Source: a virus
Lineage: Duplodnaviria; Heunggongvirae; Uroviricota; Caudoviricetes
Virus record (IMG/VR): IMGVR_UViG_2896589216_000005
Strand: one strand, 5' to 3'
Length of the DNA stretch: 52,416 nt
Made by a program: the position numbers and the translations under genes. Positions 17,091 to 46,300 of this stretch are shown here, piece by piece. Under the pieces are notes generated by a model, which was not told where the DNA came from, ran no database searches, and saw only the letters and a program-made list of their open reading frames with translations. Position 1 is the stretch's first letter, and the number at the start of each line of letters is the position of its first letter.

Positions 17091-17465
17091 ATGCTCATAG
17101 ATTTGGTTTTACCTTACCCGCCGACGGTGAACACTTACTGGCGACGCCGTGGCAGCACATATTTTATCTCGGAGGAGGGAAAGCGTTATCGCCGGGCTGT
17201 GGCGCTTATTGTTCGCCAGCAGCGGCTGAAATTAATCCTGTCCGGAAGGCTGGCGATAAAGGTGATTGCAGAGCCACCGGATAAGCGTCGTCGCGACCTG
17301 GACAATATCCTGAAAGCACCGCTGGATGCGCTGACGCATGCGGGAGTGTTAATGGACGATGAGCAGTTTGATGAAATCAATATCGTTCGTGGTCAGCCAG
17401 TATCTGGTGGACGTATGGGGGTGAAGATTTACCCCATAATGCATGAAGAGCAGGTCAAAAAATGA
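17091..17465 (+). CDS. rusA: RusA-family Holliday junction resolvase
   Basis: 124-aa ORF; YPPTVNTYWRRRG and RRRDLDN motifs of RusA. Confidence 0.85.
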   Translation: MLIDLVLPYPPTVNTYWRRRGSTYFISEEGKRYRRAVALIVRQQRLKLILSGRLAIKVIAEPPDKRRRDLDNILKAPLDALTHAGVLMDDEQFDEINIVRGQPVSGGRMGVKIYPIMHEEQVKK

Positions 17466-18283
17466 AACTGGAAGATTTACCGAAATACTACTCCCCAAAA
17501 TCCCCTGGCCTGACCGATGTATCGGCCTCAACGTCAAAAGATGCGCTGAGTATCACTGATGTGATGGCCGCGCAGGGCATGACACAGAATCGGGCTGAGA
17601 TGGGGTTTTCTGCGTTCCTGGGGAAAATGGGCATCAGTATGAATGACAGGGCGCGGGCAACAGAATTACTGGCAGATTATGCACTCAGTCGGTGCGATCG
17701 TGTGGCGGCGTTGAGAAAACTTCCGGCAGAAATAAAACCGGTAGTGATGCGCATTATGGCTTCGTACGCTTTTGAGGATTATGCCCGCAGCGCAGCGAGT
17801 AAAAAGCAGTGCCCTTGTTGCTATGGGGAAAAATTTATTGAAAGCGTAGTTTTTACAAACAAGGTCCAGTATCCGGATGGTAAGCCGCCGGTATGGGCAA
17901 AGTGTACGAAAGGTGTGTATCCGTCTTACTGGGAAGAATGGAAAAAAGTCAGGGAGGTGGTAAAAGTTGCCTGTCCGGAGTGTGGCGGAAAGGGTGAGGT
18001 TTCCACCGCCTGTAAGGATTGCCGTGGGCGTGGTGTCGCCATTCATCGTGAAGAGTCGGTAAAACGTGGTATGCCTGTTATCAGAGACTGCCAGCGTTGT
18101 GGTGGTCGTGGCTGTGAAAGACTACCATCAACGGAGGCATTTAATGCCATATGCAAAGTGACGAGTGCTATCACGCTTGATACGTGGAAAAAATCAGTGA
18201 AACGCTTTTACGATACGTTGGTGGTTCGGTTTGACATTGAAGAGGCATGGGCGGAGCGGCAGTTAAAGAGGGTAACGCGATAG
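17462..18283 (+). CDS. Q: Late-gene antiterminator Q (zinc-binding type)
   Basis: 273-aa ORF with multiple CxxC pairs, located just upstream of a promoter/terminator pair and the late genes. Confidence 0.78.
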   Translation: MKLEDLPKYYSPKSPGLTDVSASTSKDALSITDVMAAQGMTQNRAEMGFSAFLGKMGISMNDRARATELLADYALSRCDRVAALRKLPAEIKPVVMRIMASYAFEDYARSAASKKQCPCCYGEKFIESVVFTNKVQYPDGKPPVWAKCTKGVYPSYWEEWKKVREVVKVACPECGGKGEVSTACKDCRGRGVAIHREESVKRGMPVIRDCQRCGGRGCERLPSTEAFNAICKVTSAITLDTWKKSVKRFYDTLVVRFDIEEAWAERQLKRVTR

Positions 18284-18288
18284 TGTTG

Positions 18289-18322
18289 TTGATTTTTCCC
18301 GAATCTGTGGTAAATTTGCTCT
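18289..18322 (+). promoter_or_regulatory. Putative late promoter PR-prime and qut region
   Basis: TTGATT, 16-nt spacer, TAAATT just after the Q stop and before the terminator. Confidence 0.35.
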
Positions 18323-18365
18323 AACGATGGGCGTTTTATGCCTGACGTTAGAAGATTTTTTACAC

Positions 18366-18388
18366 CCCGCCGCCTGGCGGGTTTTTTA
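18366..18388 (+). terminator. tR-prime-like intrinsic terminator
   Basis: Hairpin CCCGCC-GCCT-GGCGGG followed by TTTTTT. Confidence 0.55.
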
Positions 18389-18509
18389 TGACTGAAATCG
18401 CGTCAGTACAGTAAACGCGCTGGTGGCGGTGAATACCTGTCTTTCAGCTTGCTGGCTTTTTCGACAAGAGTTATTGGTGTGTCACGTTAACCGGAAAAGG
18501 GAAAAAGAC

Positions 18510-18707
18510 ATGCTGAAACAGCAGGATATGACAGAAACCGCCAGAGTGGTGTTTAATGAATTAAGCGTTAACGACCCGGCGACAGTCGGGGAGATTGCGC
18601 AGAATACTTACCTTTCACGCGAACGCTGCCAGTTAATACTGACCCAGCTGGTTATGGCGGGTCTGGCAGACTATCAGTTCGGTTGTTACAGACGCCTTCC
18701 GCAGTGA
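18510..18707 (+). CDS. Small winged-helix-like protein, 65 aa
   Basis: ATG at 18510 after the terminator; ORF track extends it upstream to 18423. Confidence 0.4.
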   Translation: MLKQQDMTETARVVFNELSVNDPATVGEIAQNTYLSRERCQLILTQLVMAGLADYQFGCYRRLPQ

Positions 18708-18857
18708 AGGCTTTTTTATTTGTGGTAAATGGGCGGCTGGTGGGTGTTAGGGGCACCCACCAGCCATCTGCTCATGCGTTGGGTTCACAAGCAAACCTCA
18801 GGCCCACTGCTTTGCGCAAAAGCAGAATGAGCCTATCAGAGACAGGCTTAATGATCC

Positions 18858-19916
18858 ATGCTTAATACTGTAAAAATATCCAGTTGTGAGTTAATCAACG
18901 CCGACTGCCTGGAATTTATCTGGTCGTTACCCGAAAATTCTGTTGACCTGATAGTCACGGACCCGCCGTACTTTAAAGTGAAGCCTGAGGGCTGGGATAA
19001 CCAGTGGAAGGGCGACGATGATTACCTGAAGTGGCTGGACCAGTGTCTGGCGCAGTTCTGGCGGGTGCTGAAACCTGCCGGAAGTCTTTACCTGTTCTGT
19101 GGTCATCGCCTGGCATCTGATATCGAAATCATGATGCGTGAACGCTTCAGTGTGCTGAACCATATTATCTGGGCGAAGCCGTCCGGACGCTGGAACGGAT
19201 GCAACAAGGAAAGCCTGCGGGCGTATTTCCCCGCCACAGAGCGCATTCTGTTCGCGGAACATTATCAGGGGCCGCATCGTCCGAAAGATGCCGGGTATGC
19301 GGCGAAGGGCAGTGCACTGAAACAGCATGTGATGGCCCCGCTGATTTCTTACTTTCGTGATGCGCGCGCGGCCCTGGGGATAACGGCAAAACAGATTGCA
19401 GATGCCACAGGAAAGAAAAACATGGTGTCGCACTGGTTCAGTGCCAGTCAGTGGCAGCTACCGAACGAAAGCGATTATCTGAAATTACAGTCGCTGTTTG
19501 CCCGGGTGGCAGAAGAGAAACATCAGCGCGGTGAACTGGAAAAGCCCCACCACCAGCTGGTGGATACGTATACGTCACTGAACCGGCAGTATGTGGAGCT
19601 GCAGAGTGAATATAAGCATCTGCGGCGGTATTTTGGTGTGACGGCGCAGGTGCCGTACACGGATGTGTGGACACATAAACCGGTGCAGTTCTATCCCGGG
19701 AAACATCCGTGCGAAAAACCGGCAGAAATGCTGCAGCAGATAATCAGCGCAAGCAGTCGTCCGGGTGACCTGGTTGCAGATTTTTTTATGGACTCAGGTT
19801 CAACGGTAAAAGCGGCACTGGCGCTCGGGCGTCGTGCGATTGGCGTTGAGCTGGAGACCGGACGTTTTGAGCAGACGGTTCGGGAAGTACAGGATTTAGT
19901 CAGCCAGAACGGATGA
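18858..19916 (+). CDS. Orphan DNA methyltransferase (N6-adenine/N4-cytosine class, DPPY motif)
   Basis: 352-aa ORF; N-terminal DPPY catalytic motif and C-terminal SAM-binding motif; no nuclease partner nearby. Confidence 0.85.
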   Translation: MLNTVKISSCELINADCLEFIWSLPENSVDLIVTDPPYFKVKPEGWDNQWKGDDDYLKWLDQCLAQFWRVLKPAGSLYLFCGHRLASDIEIMMRERFSVLNHIIWAKPSGRWNGCNKESLRAYFPATERILFAEHYQGPHRPKDAGYAAKGSALKQHVMAPLISYFRDARAALGITAKQIADATGKKNMVSHWFSASQWQLPNESDYLKLQSLFARVAEEKHQRGELEKPHHQLVDTYTSLNRQYVELQSEYKHLRRYFGVTAQVPYTDVWTHKPVQFYPGKHPCEKPAEMLQQIISASSRPGDLVADFFMDSGSTVKAALALGRRAIGVELETGRFEQTVREVQDLVSQNG

Positions 19917-19956: not shown

Positions 19957-20032
19957 GGCCCTTTAGCTCAGTGGTGAGAGCGAGCGACTCATAATCGCCA
20001 GGTCGCTGGTTCAAATCCAGCAAGGGCCACCA
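19957..20032 (+). tRNA. ileZ: tRNA-Ile2 (anticodon CAU, lysidine type; ileZ-like)
   Basis: 76-nt cloverleaf by hand folding; anticodon loop CUCAUAA; near-identical to recalled ileX; encodes 3-prime CCA. Confidence 0.85.
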
Positions 20033-20039
20033 TCACATA

Positions 20040-20116
20040 CCGCCATTAGCTCATCGGGATAGAGCGCCAGCCTTCGAAGCTGGTTGCGCGGGGTTCGAGT
20101 TCTCGATGGCGGTCCA
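20040..20116 (+). tRNA. argO: tRNA-Arg (anticodon UCG)
   Basis: 77-nt cloverleaf by hand folding; anticodon loop CUUCGAA; T-loop TTCGAGT; encodes CCA. Confidence 0.78.
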
Positions 20117-20130
20117 TTTATCGGTATTCT

Positions 20131-20200
20131 GCGTTGTTAGCTCAGCCGGACAGAGCAATTGCCTTCTAAGCAGCTGTGGTTGCACTCCTGTTGTTTCTGG
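20131..20200 (+). pseudogene. Degenerate tRNA-Arg (UCU) remnant
   Basis: Intact acceptor 5-prime strand, D-arm and CUUCUAA loop, but no canonical T-arm or matching 3-prime acceptor strand. Confidence 0.4.
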
Positions 20201-20373: not shown

Positions 20374-20570
20374 ATTGTCTGGCTGCCGGAGAATTTGTTA
20401 AAAATTACATCGCATGGTGAATCCCCCTCAGCGGCGGGGCATCTGGCAAAGTGTATGATCCAGAGAACATGCAAATTCAGTAGACAGGCTGAATTTACCG
20501 GGAGGCACCTGGCACCATGCGACAGACAGAAATTAGGCTATACTTCAGCCCCTCTCCGGAGGGGCTTTTC
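20374..20570 (+). repeat. Structured direct-repeat unit A (about 200 bp) ending in an 8-bp GC hairpin plus T-run
   Basis: Shares conserved blocks with unit B; terminal hairpin AGCCCCTC-TCCG-GAGGGGCT followed by TTTTCT. Confidence 0.5.
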
Positions 20571-20842
20571 TGTGCAGGATGTGTCACAGTTTCCTGAATT
20601 CTGAGTACTGTCCTGTTACTCAGGGTGCTATATTTTCTGACGTGATGAAAGTCTGCCGGAAGGCGGAACGTATCGGAAATGACCCAGTAGAGAAAACGTT
20701 GACTCAGATACCGATGCTGAGTTACCGGGAAACCGGCATCACATGACCGCTATCCTTCCAGGCTCGCTCCGGCGGGCCTTTTTACTGCAGAAAACAGTTT
20801 TCCCGTAAAATGCTACGTTGCTCATAATTCAGGCTGGCGATT

Positions 20843-21035
20843 ATTGTCTGGCCAGCGGGAAGTTTGTTAAAAAATTTCGCATGGTGAATCCCCCTGTGCG
20901 GAGGGGCAATCAGCGAGTAGGTATATGGGATAATCGCGGATTCAGGTGCTGGTACTGAATTCACCGGGAGGCACCCGGCACCATGCAATGGCACATAGCG
21001 CCACTCTCCAGCCCCTCTCCGGAGGGGCTGTTTAT
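20843..21035 (+). repeat. Structured direct-repeat unit B
   Basis: Same block order as unit A, 469 bp downstream; identical terminal hairpin. Confidence 0.5.
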
Positions 21036-21064
21036 ATTGATTTTGTCAGATGTGAGTAAACTCC

Positions 21065-21400
21065 TTATGGACTTTGTTGTTTTAGTCCATAAGGACATAT
21101 TTGCAGAGTGCAACGGTTATTAAAGCATTCATTCAATACGTTATCTGTATTTGTAGGGCATTCCTGGCTGTTTTTGATTAAATTCCAGAATGTTTTATTG
21201 AATGGCACTACGTTGTAAATGGTTACAGGTAGCACTTTGTTATTGAGCATGATGCCTGTGTGAGTCAGTGTAAATATACTTTCAGGAGGTAAGAAAGCAT
21301 CCGATTGATACCAGATTATTAATTTTATTTTACTCCATATGACTGAAAAAGATATTCCGCATGATGGCTGGATAACTGTATCAATCACAATCCACTTCAT
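21065..21400 (-). CDS. Hypothetical protein in AT-rich island, 111 aa
   Basis: ORF with AGGAAA SD 4 nt before the ATG; low GC relative to flanks; the 3-prime end overlaps a hairpin, so the C-terminus is uncertain. Confidence 0.4.
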
Positions 21401-21659
21401 TTAGTTTCCTTGTTTATGTCTTGCTGGTGATGTTCTGAAAAGTATAAATGATATTTTTGATTGTAAACCATAGAGCAGAATTATTTTTCTGATGTTGTTT
21501 ATTGTTTATTTAAATGCATGGTGGTTTATATCTCGTCTTGTAGTTTATCCATGCATATCTGCTTGATGATGAGGTTTTTATTTAAGGTATGGTTTTGTTT
21601 TTTTCTGTATTACATGTCAGGTATTTTAAAGAATCATTTTTCAGATGGTGGAAAGAACC

Positions 21660-23516
21660 ATGGCATTTAAACACTATGATGTTGTCAGGGCGGCGTCGCC
21701 GTCAGATCTTGCGGAAAAGCTGACACATAAACTGAAAGAGGGCTGGCAGCCGTTTGGTAGTCCGGTGGCCATAACCCCTTATACCCTGATGCAGGCGATT
21801 GCAGCAGAAGGTGATGTGGTCGTCAGTGGTGCAACTGAGCCGGAGTGGTACTACGTCATCGTACTGGCCGGGCAATCCAATGCCATGGCTTACGGTGAAG
21901 GGCTTCCGCTTCCGGATTCTTACGATGCGCCCCACCCACGTATTAAGCAACTGGCCCGTCGCAACACAGTGACTCCCGGTGGTAAAGCATGCGCATTTAA
22001 CGACATCATTCCGGCAGACCACTGCCTGCATGATGTTCAGGATATGAGCGCACTGAATCATCCGAAGGCAGACCTGAGCAAAGGGCAGTACGGCTGTGTC
22101 GGCCAGGGCTTACATATTGCCAAAAAACTGCTTCCGTATATCCCGAATAACGCGGGGATCCTGCTGGTACCATGCTGTCGTGGTGGTTCGGCATTCACCC
22201 AGGGCGCGGAGGGGACATTCAGTGCGGACACGGGGGCCAGCCAGGATTCGGCACGCTGGGGTGTGGGTAAACCGTTATATCAGGACCTGATCGCACGCAC
22301 CAAAGCGGCATTACAGAAGAACCCGAAAAATGTGTTGCTGGCGGTGTGCTGGATGCAGGGCGAATTTGACATGAGCGCTGCCACCTACGCACAGCAACCG
22401 GACCTGTTCACGGCCATGCTGAAGCAGTTCCGTACTGACCTTTCCGGATTTAACGCGCAGTGCCATGGCGGCAGTGCTGCAGTTGTACCGTGGATTTGTG
22501 GCGACACGACGTATTACTGGAAAAACACATACGGCACACAGTATGACTCCGTCTACGGCGCGTACAAAAACAGGGAGAGCGACAACGTTTTCTTTGTGCC
22601 GTTCATGACCGACGGTAACGGCAACAACACGCCCACCAACTTACCGGCAGAAGACCCGGATATTGCTGATGCAGGTTATTACGGCGCGCAATCCCGTAGT
22701 AATGGTAATTGGGTATCGTCAAATCGTCCGACACATTTCAGTTCATGGGCGCGCAGGGGCATTATTTCGGATCGCCTGGCAACCGCTATTCTGAACGCAG
22801 TTGGTCGAACCAGCGCCTTCATCAGCGGTACCGCACCGGAGATTAAACCCTCGCCCGGCGGCGACACGCCATCGGGGCCGTCTGATGGTGACACATCCGT
22901 TCGTACAGTCTCCCTGCTGCCGACAGCCGGAGAGGCTGCTGCGCAGGGCTGGACCATCACCGGCGGCAGTGTTGCGCTGGAAGATGGTGTGTTTAAGGTT
23001 ACCAAGCAGAGCAATAAAACCTGGTCCCTGATGCATCCGGTGGATGACGCAGTCTCCCTGCTGACACGGGGTGGCAGACTGAGCTGTAAGTTTCGACTGT
23101 CAGGCGCACTGACCAACAACCAGTTCGGTCTGGGAATTTATCTGTATACCGATGTAGCGTTACCTGACGTCGTGGCGATGACCGGGACTGGTAACCCGTT
23201 CCTGATGTCGTTCTTCACCCAGACCACAGACGGCAAACTGAATCTGATGCATCACAAGAAAGCCGGAAACACAAAGTTGGGCGAGTTCGGGAATTACAGT
23301 AACGACTGGCAGACGCTGGAGCTGGTGTTCACCGCCGGCAGTGCCACGGTTACTCCGAAACTGAATGGAGTGGCTGGCCCGGCATTCCAGGTCATAAAAG
23401 ACAGTCTGACACTGGGGCTGAATGCGCTGACGCTGACGGATATTACCAAAAATGCAGCGTATGGCGTTGAGATAGAAAGTCTGGTGCTGGAGATAAATGC
23501 ACCGGCATCATCATAA
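21660..23516 (+). CDS. NanS-p-like sialate O-acetylesterase (DUF1737 + SGNH/SASA esterase)
   Basis: GQSNA esterase motif and N-terminal DUF1737-like segment; the position Stx-type phages use for this gene. Confidence 0.78.
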   Translation: MAFKHYDVVRAASPSDLAEKLTHKLKEGWQPFGSPVAITPYTLMQAIAAEGDVVVSGATEPEWYYVIVLAGQSNAMAYGEGLPLPDSYDAPHPRIKQLARRNTVTPGGKACAFNDIIPADHCLHDVQDMSALNHPKADLSKGQYGCVGQGLHIAKKLLPYIPNNAGILLVPCCRGGSAFTQGAEGTFSADTGASQDSARWGVGKPLYQDLIARTKAALQKNPKNVLLAVCWMQGEFDMSAATYAQQPDLFTAMLKQFRTDLSGFNAQCHGGSAAVVPWICGDTTYYWKNTYGTQYDSVYGAYKNRESDNVFFVPFMTDGNGNNTPTNLPAEDPDIADAGYYGAQSRSNGNWVSSNRPTHFSSWARRGIISDRLATAILNAVGRTSAFISGTAPEIKPSPGGDTPSGPSDGDTSVRTVSLLPTAGEAAAQGWTITGGSVALEDGVFKVTKQSNKTWSLMHPVDDAVSLLTRGGRLSCKFRLSGALTNNQFGLGIYLYTDVALPDVVAMTGTGNPFLMSFFTQTTDGKLNLMHHKKAGNTKLGEFGNYSNDWQTLELVFTAGSATVTPKLNGVAGPAFQVIKDSLTLGLNALTLTDITKNAAYGVEIESLVLEINAPASS

Positions 23517-43312: not shown

Positions 43313-46300
43313 ATGGGTAAAGGAAGCAGTAAGGGGCATACCCCGCGCGAAGCGAAGGACAACCTGAAATCCACGCAATTACTGAGTGTGATCGATGCCA
43401 TCAGCGAAGGGCCGATTGAAGGTCCGGTGGATGGATTAAAAAGCGTGCTGCTGAACAGTACACCGGTGCTGGACAGTGAGGGGAATACCAACATCTCCGG
43501 TGTTACGGTGGTGTTCCGGGCAGGTGAGCAGGAGCAGACACCGCCGGAGGGATTTGAATCCTCCGGTTCCGAGACGGTGCTGGGTACGGAAGTGAAATAC
43601 GACACGCCGATCACCCGGACCATCACGTCTGCAAACATCGACCGTCTGCGCTTTACCTTCGGTGTGCAGGCACTGGTGGAAACCACCTCAAAGGGTGACA
43701 GGAATCCGTCGGAAGTCCGCCTGCTGGTTCAGATACAACGTAACGGTGGCTGGGTGACGGAAAAAGACATCACCATTAAGGGCAAAACCACCTCGCAGTA
43801 TCTGGCCTCGGTGGTGGTGGGTAACCTGCCGCCGCGCCCGTTTAATATCCGGATGCGCAGGATGACGCCGGACAGCACCACAGACCAGCTGCAGAACAAA
43901 ACGCTCTGGTCGTCATACACTGAAATCATCGATGTGAAACAGTGCTACCCGAACACGGCACTGGTCGGCGTGCAGGTGGACTCGGAACAGTTCGGCAGCC
44001 AGCAGGTGAGCCGTAATTATCATCTTCGCGGGCGCATTCTGCAGGTGCCATCGAACTATAACCCGCAGACGCGGCAATACAGCGGTATCTGGGACGGGAC
44101 GTTTAAACCGGCATACAGCAACAACATGGCATGGTGTCTGTGGGATATGCTGACCCACCCGCGCTACGGCATGGGGAAACGTCTTGGTGCGGCGGATGTG
44201 GACAAATGGGCGCTGTATGTCATCGGCCAGTATTGCGATCAGTCAGTGCCGGATGGCTTTGGTGGCACGGAGCCGCGCATCACCTGTAACGCTTACCTGA
44301 CCACACAGCGTAAGGCGTGGGATGTGCTCAGTGATTTCTGTTCGGCGATGCGCTATATGCCGGTATGGAACGGGCAGACGCTGACGTTCGTGCAGGACCG
44401 ACCGTCGGATAAGGTGTGGACCTATAACCGCAGTAATGTGGTGATGCCGGATGATGGCGCGCCGTTCCGCTACAGCTTCAGCGCCCTGAAGGACCGCCAT
44501 AATGCCGTTGAGGTGAACTGGATTGACCCGGATAACGGCTGGGAGACGGCGACAGAGCTTGTTGAAGATACGCAGGCCATTGCCCGTTACGGTCGTAACG
44601 TCACGAAGATGGATGCCTTTGGCTGTACCAGCCGGGGGCAGGCACACCGCGCCGGGCTGTGGCTGATTAAAACGGAGCTGCTGGAAACGCAGACCGTGGA
44701 CTTCAGCGTGGGTGCAGAAGGGCTTCGCCATGTACCGGGCGATGTCATTGAAATCTGTGATGATGACTATGCGGGTATCAGCATCGGCGGGCGCGTGCTG
44801 GCGGTGAACAGCCAGACGCGGACACTGACGCTCGACCGTGAAATCACGCTGCCATCCTCCGGCACCACGCTGATAAGCCTGGTTGACGGACAGGGGAATC
44901 CGGTCAGCGTGGAGGTCCAGTCCGTCACCGACGGCGTGAAGGTGAAAGTGAGCCGTGTTCCTGACGGCGTTGCCGAATACAGCGTGTGGGGGCTGAAGCT
45001 GCCGACGCTGCGCCAGCGCCTGTTCCGCTGCGTGAGTATCCGTGAGAACGATGACGGCACGTATGCCATCACCGCCGTGCAGCATGTACCGGAAAAAGAA
45101 GCCATCGTGGATAACGGGGCGCACTTTGACGGCGACCAGAGCGGCACGGTGAATGGTGTCACGCCGCCAGCGGTGCAGCACCTGACTGCCGAAGTCACCG
45201 CAGACAGCGGGGAGTATCAGGTACTGGCCCGCTGGGACACGCCGAAGGTGGTGAAGGGCGTGAGCTTCCTGCTTCGCCTGACCGTGACAGCGGACGATGG
45301 CAGTGAGCGGCTGGTCAGCACGGCCCGGACGACGGAAACCACATACCGCTTCAGGCAGCTGGCGCTGGGGCGTTACATGTTGACGGTCCGGGCGGTAAAT
45401 GCGTGGGGACAGCAGGGCGATCCGGCGTCGGTATCGTTCCGGATTGCCGCACCGGCAGCGCCGTCGCGGATTGAGCTGACGCCGGGCTATTTTCAGATAA
45501 CCGCCACGCCGCATCTTGCCGTTTATGACCCGACGGTACAGTTTGAGTTCTGGTTTTCGGAAAAGCGGATTACCGATATCAGGAAGGTTGAAACCACAGC
45601 GCGCTATCTTGGCACGGGGCTGTACTGGATAGCCGCCAGTATCAATATCAAACCGGGCCATGATTATTATTTTTACGTTCGCAGTGTGAACACCGTTGGC
45701 AAATCGGCATTCGTGGAGGCTGTTGGTCAGCCGAGTGATGATGCATCCGGTTATCTGGATTTTTTCAAAGGCGAGATAGGGAAAACCCATCTGGCTCAGG
45801 AGCTGTGGACGCAGATTGATAAAGGTCAGCTTGCGCCTGACCTGGCTGAAATCAGGACGTCCATTACGGATGTCAGCAATGAAATCACGCAGACTGTCAA
45901 TAAGAAACTGAAAGACCAGAGTGCGGCAATCCAGCAGATACAGAAGGTTCAGGTTGATACAAATAATAATCTGAACAGCATGTGGGCTGTGAAGCTGCAA
46001 CAGATGAAGGACGGACGCCTTTATATTGCGGGTATCGGTGCCGGTATTGAGAATACGCCAGCAGGAATGCAGAGTCAGGTGCTGCTGGCGGCAGACAGGA
46101 TTGCGATGATTAATCCTGCGAATGGCAACACAAAGCCGATGTTTGTTGGTCAGGGCGATCAGATATTCATGAACGACGTGTTCCTGAAACGCCTGACGGC
46201 TCCCACCATTACCAGCGGCGGTGATCCTCCGGCATTTTCCCTGACACCGGACGGGCGGCTGACGGCGAAAAATGCCGATATTAGCGGTAACGTGAATGCG

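Follow-up and report, generated by a model that had tools for sequence, protein, structure and literature searches.

A lambdoid prophage methyltransferase of the M.EcoGII family: a probably inactive allele behind a conserved leader element

The window analysed here, the whole 52,416-nucleotide stretch of IMG/VR virus record IMGVR_UViG_2896589216_000005, is by its list of open reading frames (ORFs) a complete lambdoid prophage, and its late region carries a gene for a 352-amino-acid (aa) DNA methyltransferase (18858-19916, plus strand), preceded by a 65-aa ORF and by a spacer that holds a conserved leader element. Its sequence marks the gene as a prophage copy from the M.EcoGI/M.EcoGII family of non-specific adenine methyltransferases, which has already been characterised. 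We put at roughly 70% the probability that these parts form a lambdoid hypermethylation module, expressed late and in dependence on the antiterminator Q, in which translation would be limited by the leader and in which the enzyme of this particular copy would most likely be defective in binding S-adenosylmethionine (SAM or AdoMet). Earlier literature already covers the gene, where it lies and the anti-restriction function presumed for it; the leader is the item that deserves follow-up, the rest of the finding being known.

The methyltransferase gene and its late control region

The methyltransferase matches the Pfam family N6_N4_Mtase (PF01555) over residues 29-340, with an expectation value (E) of 4.5e-42 and a score of 144.9 bits against a gathering cutoff of 26.7. 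Its DPPY motif occupies residues 35-38 (D35-P36-P37-Y38) and is invariant in the alignment, and it precedes a C-terminal motif I at residues 310-314, so that the order of motifs is that of the beta class of N6-adenine enzymes. The long insertion between catalytic and SAM-binding motifs that the original prediction had pointed out is real: 312 residues align onto a profile of 221 positions, and the insertion corresponds to a target-recognition domain of four helices plus a charged linker in the M.EcoGII model (PMC11551740). Over its full length the window protein is identical to M.EcoGII at 326 of 349 residues (~93%), the M.EcoGII reference having been machine-read from the supplement of PMC11551740 with a few evident reading errors, and it sits in a 90% identity cluster of 5932 members together with 349-aa Escherichia coli proteins. 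The region matches 41 phage records, nearly all of them phages that convert their hosts to production of Shiga toxin (Stx) 2, with DNA identities of 94.7% to phage 1720a-02 and 86% to phiP27; it is also matched in 2522 of 5426 complete E. coli genomes, at up to eight places per genome.

M.EcoGII is a 349-aa prophage enzyme of E. coli O104:H4 that modifies adenines whatever the surrounding DNA sequence (Murray et al. 2018, PMC5778455). Cloned alone it is active and shows no sequence specificity, its constitutive expression leads to slow-growing, unstable clones, and both it and M.EcoGI are reported to be silent in the lysogen (PMC5778455). The enzyme of phage 1720a-02 was named as a very similar homologue in the same study, where protection of progeny DNA from restriction is the role proposed for the family (PMC5778455). 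Under that published proposal progeny DNA would be broadly methylated and thereby guarded from restriction in the next host, and the suggestion in the original prediction that the window enzyme protects progeny DNA in this way agrees with it. Its companion suggestion, that the enzyme might mark DNA epigenetically, finds no support as far as the lysogen is concerned, M.EcoGI and M.EcoGII having been reported silent there (PMC5778455).

Comparison with known systems places the window gene closely. The M.EcoGI and M.EcoGII genes of the C227-11 prophages are likewise orphans, sited where silence in the lysogen is expected, and share with the window enzyme the beta-class succession of DPPY, target-recognition domain and motif I; the window enzyme differs from M.EcoGII in being 352 aa long with a different C-terminal tail (349 aa in M.EcoGII), in reading FMDSG rather than FMGSG, and in having H140 in place of Y140. 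The Stx2 phages phiP27 (L23-L24) and 1720a-02 have in common with the window the order Q, small TrmB-like ORF, methylase, tRNAs. Mu-like prophages encode non-specific adenine methylases of the alpha class (Drozdz et al. 2012, PMC3299994); these are also phage-borne, promiscuous and presumed to act against restriction, but their motif order is reversed and their sequences are unrelated.

The control region upstream is of the lambda type, comprising Q, a late promoter PR' with its pause element, and the terminator tR'. The gene for Q (17462-18283, plus strand; 273 aa) matches Pfam Antiterm (PF03589, E 3.9e-51) and phrog_127, 'anti-termination protein Q-like'; the protein is long for its kind, and a DnaJ-type CxxCxGxG zinc-finger stretch at residues 171-217 overlaps the start of its Antiterm match (178-265). 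PR' (18289-18328, plus strand) consists of a -35 element TTGATT (18289-18294), a -10 element TAAATT (18311-18316) and a lambda-type pause element AACGAT (18323-18328). Positions 18289-18331 were aligned with lambda PR' (lambda 44499-44629), and two blocks are identical in both: GGTAAATTTG, which holds the -10 element, and AACGATGGG, which is the lambda pause element. A generic promoter scan did not call PR', which agrees with the consensus at only 8 of 12 positions. The intrinsic terminator tR' (18366-18388, plus strand), recovered by a terminator scan and by folding of the single sequence, has its hairpin at 18366-18381, CCCGCCGCCTGGCGGG, followed by a run of seven T. The scan of the window returned a second terminator-like hairpin followed by a T-run at 18694-18719 (plus strand), whose loop holds the stop codon of the 65-aa ORF. 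The same arrangement of hairpin and stop codon occurs in a Salmonella locus (L021), and in a locus that has no small ORF (L078) a hairpin likewise stands immediately 5' of the leader. On a reading of the alignment, the last codons of the small ORF form the stem of this hairpin (18694-18711, plus strand), and whilst the sequence varies among relatives its self-complementarity is kept.

That a 352-aa DPPY methyltransferase lies directly after Q and PR'/tR', accompanied by a 65-aa ORF, is thus borne out by the ORFs, the Pfam match, the alignment with lambda and the terminator scan. So is the absence of a restriction partner: no nuclease gene adjoins the methylase, whose neighbours are Q upstream and tRNA genes downstream. 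An orphan methylase within a Q-dependent late transcript is accordingly what the layout supports, dependence on Q being judged from position. Since two terminators follow PR', the methylase would be expected only when Q antiterminates, late in lytic growth: a polymerase entering the module, which occupies the moron site right after PR', would have to pass both tR' and the second terminator-like hairpin. The growth-impairing enzyme would by the same two terminators stay off in the lysogen, and the control may be twofold, with the terminators confining transcription to Q-modified polymerase and the structured leader confining translation.

An aspartate in the SAM-binding motif

The window copy departs from its family at the first glycine of motif I. 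A single change from GGC to GAC at 19791-19793 (plus strand) places Asp312 where the glycine belongs, turning FMGSG into FMDSG (F310-M-D312-S-G314), so the intact FxGxG of M.EcoGI and M.EcoGII is lost. Glycine stands at position 312 in 16 of 16 aligned homologues, from Escherichia to Erwinia, and in all 319 methylase copies found in 391 fetched loci. The exact window protein was found on a single contig (4.6 Mb, Shigella dysenteriae) within a collection of 15 billion proteins. A second private change, Y140H, is also present: histidine occurs at this position in only 1 of 278 copies, and residue 140 lies at the end of a stretch reported as the invariant dimer interface of M.EcoGII (PMC11551740).

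The likely consequence can be gauged from M1.HpyAVI (PDB 5HEK/5HFJ; PMC5173035), a beta-class adenine methylase with an identical FMGSG, whose C-terminal SAM-binding region aligns without gaps such that residue 312 falls on G197. An alanine scan of that enzyme found G197 (as G197A) to be crucial for AdoMet binding, and mutation of the same glycine in M.EcoKI and M.EcoP15I is stated to abolish AdoMet binding (PMC5173035). M1.HpyAVI is a distant, sequence-specific restriction-modification enzyme that has no long target-recognition domain, and the comparison is limited to the glycine substitution.

As the change falls on a conserved, AdoMet-critical glycine, the window methylase is probably inactive; from sequence and by analogy with these mutants, we consider it very probable that this copy cannot bind SAM, and the module has probably been left as a decaying relic in a prophage of Shigella dysenteriae. 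The alternative is that the allele remains active in spite of G312D, and that the prophage hypermethylates its own DNA on induction. The full-length ORF, the intact DPPY and the unaltered remainder of the motif region (ADFFM-SGST) would favour this, but none of the 335 other copies compared has lost the glycine, the loss of AdoMet binding indicated by the M1.HpyAVI, M.EcoKI and M.EcoP15I mutants points the other way (PMC5173035), and Y140H adds a second private change at the end of the dimer interface, all of which makes continued activity quite improbable. The original prediction was to have been abandoned if expression produced no new methylated motif. Such an outcome cannot discriminate here: the family has no motif, so that none is expected and the test is ill-posed, and the allele carries G312D.

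The leader element and the 65-aa ORF

Between the small ORF and the methylase lies a spacer of 150 nucleotides (nt; 18708-18857), most of which is taken up by a conserved, structured leader of the methylase gene (18720-18857, ~140 nt, plus strand). The spacer aligns across genera better than the genes that flank it: among 20 loci, mean pairwise identity is 83% over its last 135 nt, compared with 71% for the methylase coding sequence, 47% for the third positions of that coding sequence and 64% for the small ORF. A leader profile search places the element directly 5' of the methylase in genome loci, including those that have no small ORF, the exceptions being loci of the Xenorhabdus/Photorhabdus type together with L020 and L035. 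In viral loci the methylase follows directly in 116 of 118 leader matches, and the other two end at a contig edge. No Shine-Dalgarno sequence precedes the methylase ATG in any clade. Within the gene itself (18858-18884, plus strand), synonymous positions of codons 2, 4 and 7-9 show 87-97% conservation across clades, a figure that drops to 40-60% deeper in the gene, so that the element seems to reach about 27 nt into the coding sequence.

Three helices account for the structure: P1 (18735-18746 with 18754-18765), P2 (18769-18776 with 18786-18793) and the hairpin P3 (18805-18829). A covariance model gathered 82 further leader copies, 50 of them distinct, from divergent clades. The share of paired cells in the leader alignment is 83% (74% in shuffles), and the covariation score of 0.295 compares with 0.133 in shuffles (0 of 500 reach the observed value) and with 0.04-0.11 in slid controls. 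Compensatory changes are found at 8 of 11 pairs in P1, 2 of 4 in P2 and 5 of 9 in P3. The alignment used for covariation was fitted to the model and so favours it; the same helices appear in MAFFT alignments that predate any model. P2 lengthens to a helix of seven base pairs in the clade represented by a Yersinia locus (L068), and the fold of the window leader has a z of -3.85. Comparative sequence evidence is thus good that the leader is a structured RNA under selection.

An alternative basal helix of six pairs, AUGGGC/GCUCAU (18729-18734 with 18770-18775), would lengthen P1 and be incompatible with P2. In the alignment 97% of its cells pair, always through transitions that keep wobble pairs, and the two conformers, with P2 or with the basal helix, differ in predicted energy by 2.3 +/- 4.5 kcal/mol, a closeness compatible with a switch. 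A version of the two-conformer model tied to exposure of the start codon was rejected: the energies are close, and the difference in exposure is inconsistent. Two further candidate pairings fared no better or stayed undecided. A P4 hairpin is paired in 58% of cells and shifts register between clades; a long-range pairing UGGGC/GCCCA proposed by RNAalifold is invariant on both sides, clashes with a covarying base of P3, and is left undecided. A leader of this kind, some 140 nt long, structured and devoid of a Shine-Dalgarno sequence, would most likely limit or time translation of the methylase, and may do so either as a 5' leader with two mutually exclusive helices or by way of a cis-antisense RNA.

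The element is apparently undescribed. None of the Rfam 15 covariance models reaches threshold over the leader, the highest score being 24 bits for P26 (minus strand; threshold 36), riboswitch models give no match up to E 10, and permissive thresholds, applied to the window and to a divergent relative, return hairpin-level noise only. Full-text literature searches with the conserved leader blocks, and for small RNAs at that position, gave nothing relevant, and no description was found in Rfam or the searchable literature. The nearest analogue is the D12-methyl RNA motif (Rfam RF02950), whose name in Rfam marks it as a candidate structured RNA associated with DNA methyltransferases of the D12 class and which presumably adjoins genes of that class. 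The class of methylase differs from that of the window, and RF02950 has no real match here, scoring 13 bits in one relative only against a gathering score of 57. A coding reading of the spacer was rejected, whether as a 60-aa ORF (18683-18865) or as a short ORF from a conserved AUG/GUG: single-base indels between the conserved blocks leave no conserved reading frame, and the short ORF ends after seven codons in most Enterobacteriaceae.

Several points weigh against the explanation favoured here. Firstly, we infer dependence on Q from position alone. Secondly, neither conformer is predicted to expose the start region consistently more than the other, and a helix that might have sequestered that region (GGUCA/UGAUC with AAGC/GCUU) was rejected, being 76% paired, as in shuffled controls, and free of covariation. 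Thirdly, relatives from Xenorhabdus and Photorhabdus have replaced the leader with a shorter, different spacer. In these loci (L051-L077) the small ORF and the methylase are both kept and the spacer measures 76-101 nt; it retains the first hairpin at most, followed in some by a terminator-like T-run. Lastly, wobble statistics do not agree on a strand: the extension of P2 pairs at 91% in the antisense orientation against 65% in the sense, the basal helix at 97% in the sense against 76% in the antisense, so that the strand signals conflict, and RNAalifold favours the reverse strand, with energies of -33.1 (reverse) and -18.1 kcal/mol (forward).

This last group of observations leads to the main rival of the sense-leader reading, namely that the 140-nt element is chiefly a cis-antisense RNA which keeps methylase mRNA that leaks through in the lysogen from being translated, in the style of type I toxin-antitoxin systems and phage antisense RNAs. 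The minus strand pairs slightly better than the plus in P1 (94% against 92%) and in the P2 core (93.5% against 90.5%), P3 fits it at least as well, and this adds to the P2 extension and the RNAalifold energies already given. A need for such repression would fit the slow-growing, unstable clones that result from constitutive M.EcoGII (PMC5778455); a promoter or pairing region would account for the unusual conservation of synonymous sites in methylase codons 2-9; and convergent small RNA genes are known in the moron region of lambdoid prophages (PMC4104026). Against it, no promoter-like site is found on the minus strand near the element in the window, L021 or L078, no clean minus-strand terminator follows it, the 97% pairing of the basal helix is confined to the sense strand and depends on 73 G-U cells, and the sense strand belongs to the late transcript regardless. 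A mainly antisense function consequently appears unlikely.

A less likely rival still, indeed highly improbable in our estimate, ascribes the conservation of the spacer to a signal in the DNA, such as a promoter, an operator or a boundary at which phage modules recombine, rather than to RNA structure. Mosaic lambdoid phages do share conserved junction sequences, and a conserved TGTG(A/G)AAT block resembles an extended -10 element, repeating in the window the TGTGGTAAAT of PR'. Compensatory changes that preserve three helices are not something a linear DNA signal would need, however, and read as a promoter the block fails: it shifts by one base between clades, the conserved A at position 2 of the hexamer, key to a -10, is often missing, and plus-strand promoter scans of the window, L021 and L078 found nothing.

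With the sense-leader and antisense possibilities both in view, the boldest reading on offer, held tentatively and at a little under even odds, is that 18720-18857 represents an undescribed regulatory RNA family dedicated to M.EcoGII-type genes across Enterobacterales. It would gate translation via mutually exclusive helices, whether as a leader in the sense orientation, as cis-antisense RNA or in both ways, perhaps in response to the methylase, the 65-aa protein, or SAM and its product S-adenosylhomocysteine.

The 65-aa ORF (18510-18707, plus strand; phrog_331, E 5.9e-37) encodes a three-helix, probably winged-helix, protein, and on comparative sequence grounds is a real gene and an optional accessory of the methylase module. 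It is nested in a 94-aa ORF that starts with GTG (18423-18707); its own N-terminus, MLKQQDMTE, is kept in relatives, and identity at its third codon positions is 46%, compared with 64% overall. Relatives number 333, and the ones listed with a name belong to genera of Enterobacterales. Matches to the Pfam winged-helix families TrmB, HTH_24 and MarR_2 (E 0.002-0.007; 16-18.5 bits) all lie under their gathering cutoffs of 22-27. An AlphaFold2 model places helices at residues 5-18, 26-32 and 37-49 with a mean pLDDT (predicted local distance difference test) of 66 and an unresolved C-terminal 'wing'; a Foldseek search with this model gave no significant match, the best being a helix-turn-helix (HTH) of Lrp/AsnC type at E 0.4 and the others being of Lrp, LexA or MarR type.

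Association with the methylase is close. Of the 76 genome loci with sequence upstream, 55 have the ORF directly before the methylase, at a near-constant gap (134-200 nt in all but a few of the 55), even though only 12 of those loci have the same Q type, and in viral loci the methylase follows in 75 of the 76 that hold the small ORF. In the sole locus where it does not (L339, 2264-3548), a gene for an AraC-like regulator takes its place, and the leader, as judged from the translated ORF, appears to be broken off after the first hairpin. In the other direction, 20 of the 76 genome loci (about 30%) have methylase and leader but no small ORF.

It had been suggested that this ORF might be a specificity or regulatory partner of the methylase. 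A role as specificity subunit falls away, since M.EcoGII is active when cloned by itself and methylates adenine regardless of context (PMC5778455), and the 20 loci that do without the ORF contradict the suggestion further. As a regulator, it would bind the spacer, as DNA operator or as RNA, in the manner of the controller proteins of restriction-modification systems, and the near-constant gap, the rarity with which it occurs apart from the methylase and its HTH-like three-helix core are what such a role would predict. Yet the leader and methylase are equally well conserved in the roughly 30% of loci from which the protein is missing, the Xenorhabdus and Photorhabdus loci retain the protein and have lost most of the leader, the family matches are sub-threshold, and the fold search returned nothing significant. 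Nor does the ORF look like a controller protein: no nuclease gene neighbours it, and it has no Xre/HTH_3 match, no Xre-type fold and no PADLOC match. A regulatory role for it thus seems distinctly unlikely. Taken overall, the original prediction keeps its late expression and anti-restriction role, both of which match the published view, and loses the specificity partner, the marking of DNA in the lysogen and the refuting experiment.

Downstream genes and biological meaning

Downstream of the methylase, and in the same late transcript, lie genes for tRNA-Met(CAT), called ileZ in Stx phages (19957-20032, plus strand), and tRNA-Arg(TCG) (20040-20116, plus strand), both identified by ARAGORN and the Rfam tRNA model and in an order identical to that of the phiP27 annotation. 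Positions 20130-20172 (plus strand) resemble the 5' half of tRNA-Arg(TCT), the third tRNA of the Stx cluster, cut just after the anticodon loop; ARAGORN makes no call there. In phiP27 and 1720a-02 the tRNAs are followed by stx, whereas the window has at that place copies of the STnc100 small RNA and an IraM-like gene. The STnc100 copies (20382-20575, 20611-20786 and 20851-21039, plus strand) comprise two full ones (140 and 133 bits) and a weak one (30 bits), and may represent the small RNA genes that have been described from the moron site behind PR' (PMC4104026). On the minus strand, a 111-aa ORF (21065-21400) matches the anti-adapter IraM family NF007393 (162 bits; cutoff 121) as well as phrog_4407, and by these matches would be a prophage-borne regulator of RpoS stability. 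Further along, a 623-aa protein (21645-23516, plus strand) combines DUF1737, a SASA sialate O-acetylesterase domain and DUF6645, domains presumably akin to those found in NanS-p esterases from Stx prophages.

In itself the methylase gene is unremarkable: prophages carry thousands of copies of this enzyme, which has been studied in depth and already serves as a laboratory tool. The copy in the window is probably dead and should not be counted as active, which matters wherever methylomes or the evasion of restriction are predicted from sequence. For the family as a whole, a leader that has no Shine-Dalgarno sequence and is more conserved than the enzyme it precedes offers a concrete candidate for the control that keeps such genes silent. 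Such a leader may help to keep tight the expression of methylases that impair growth.

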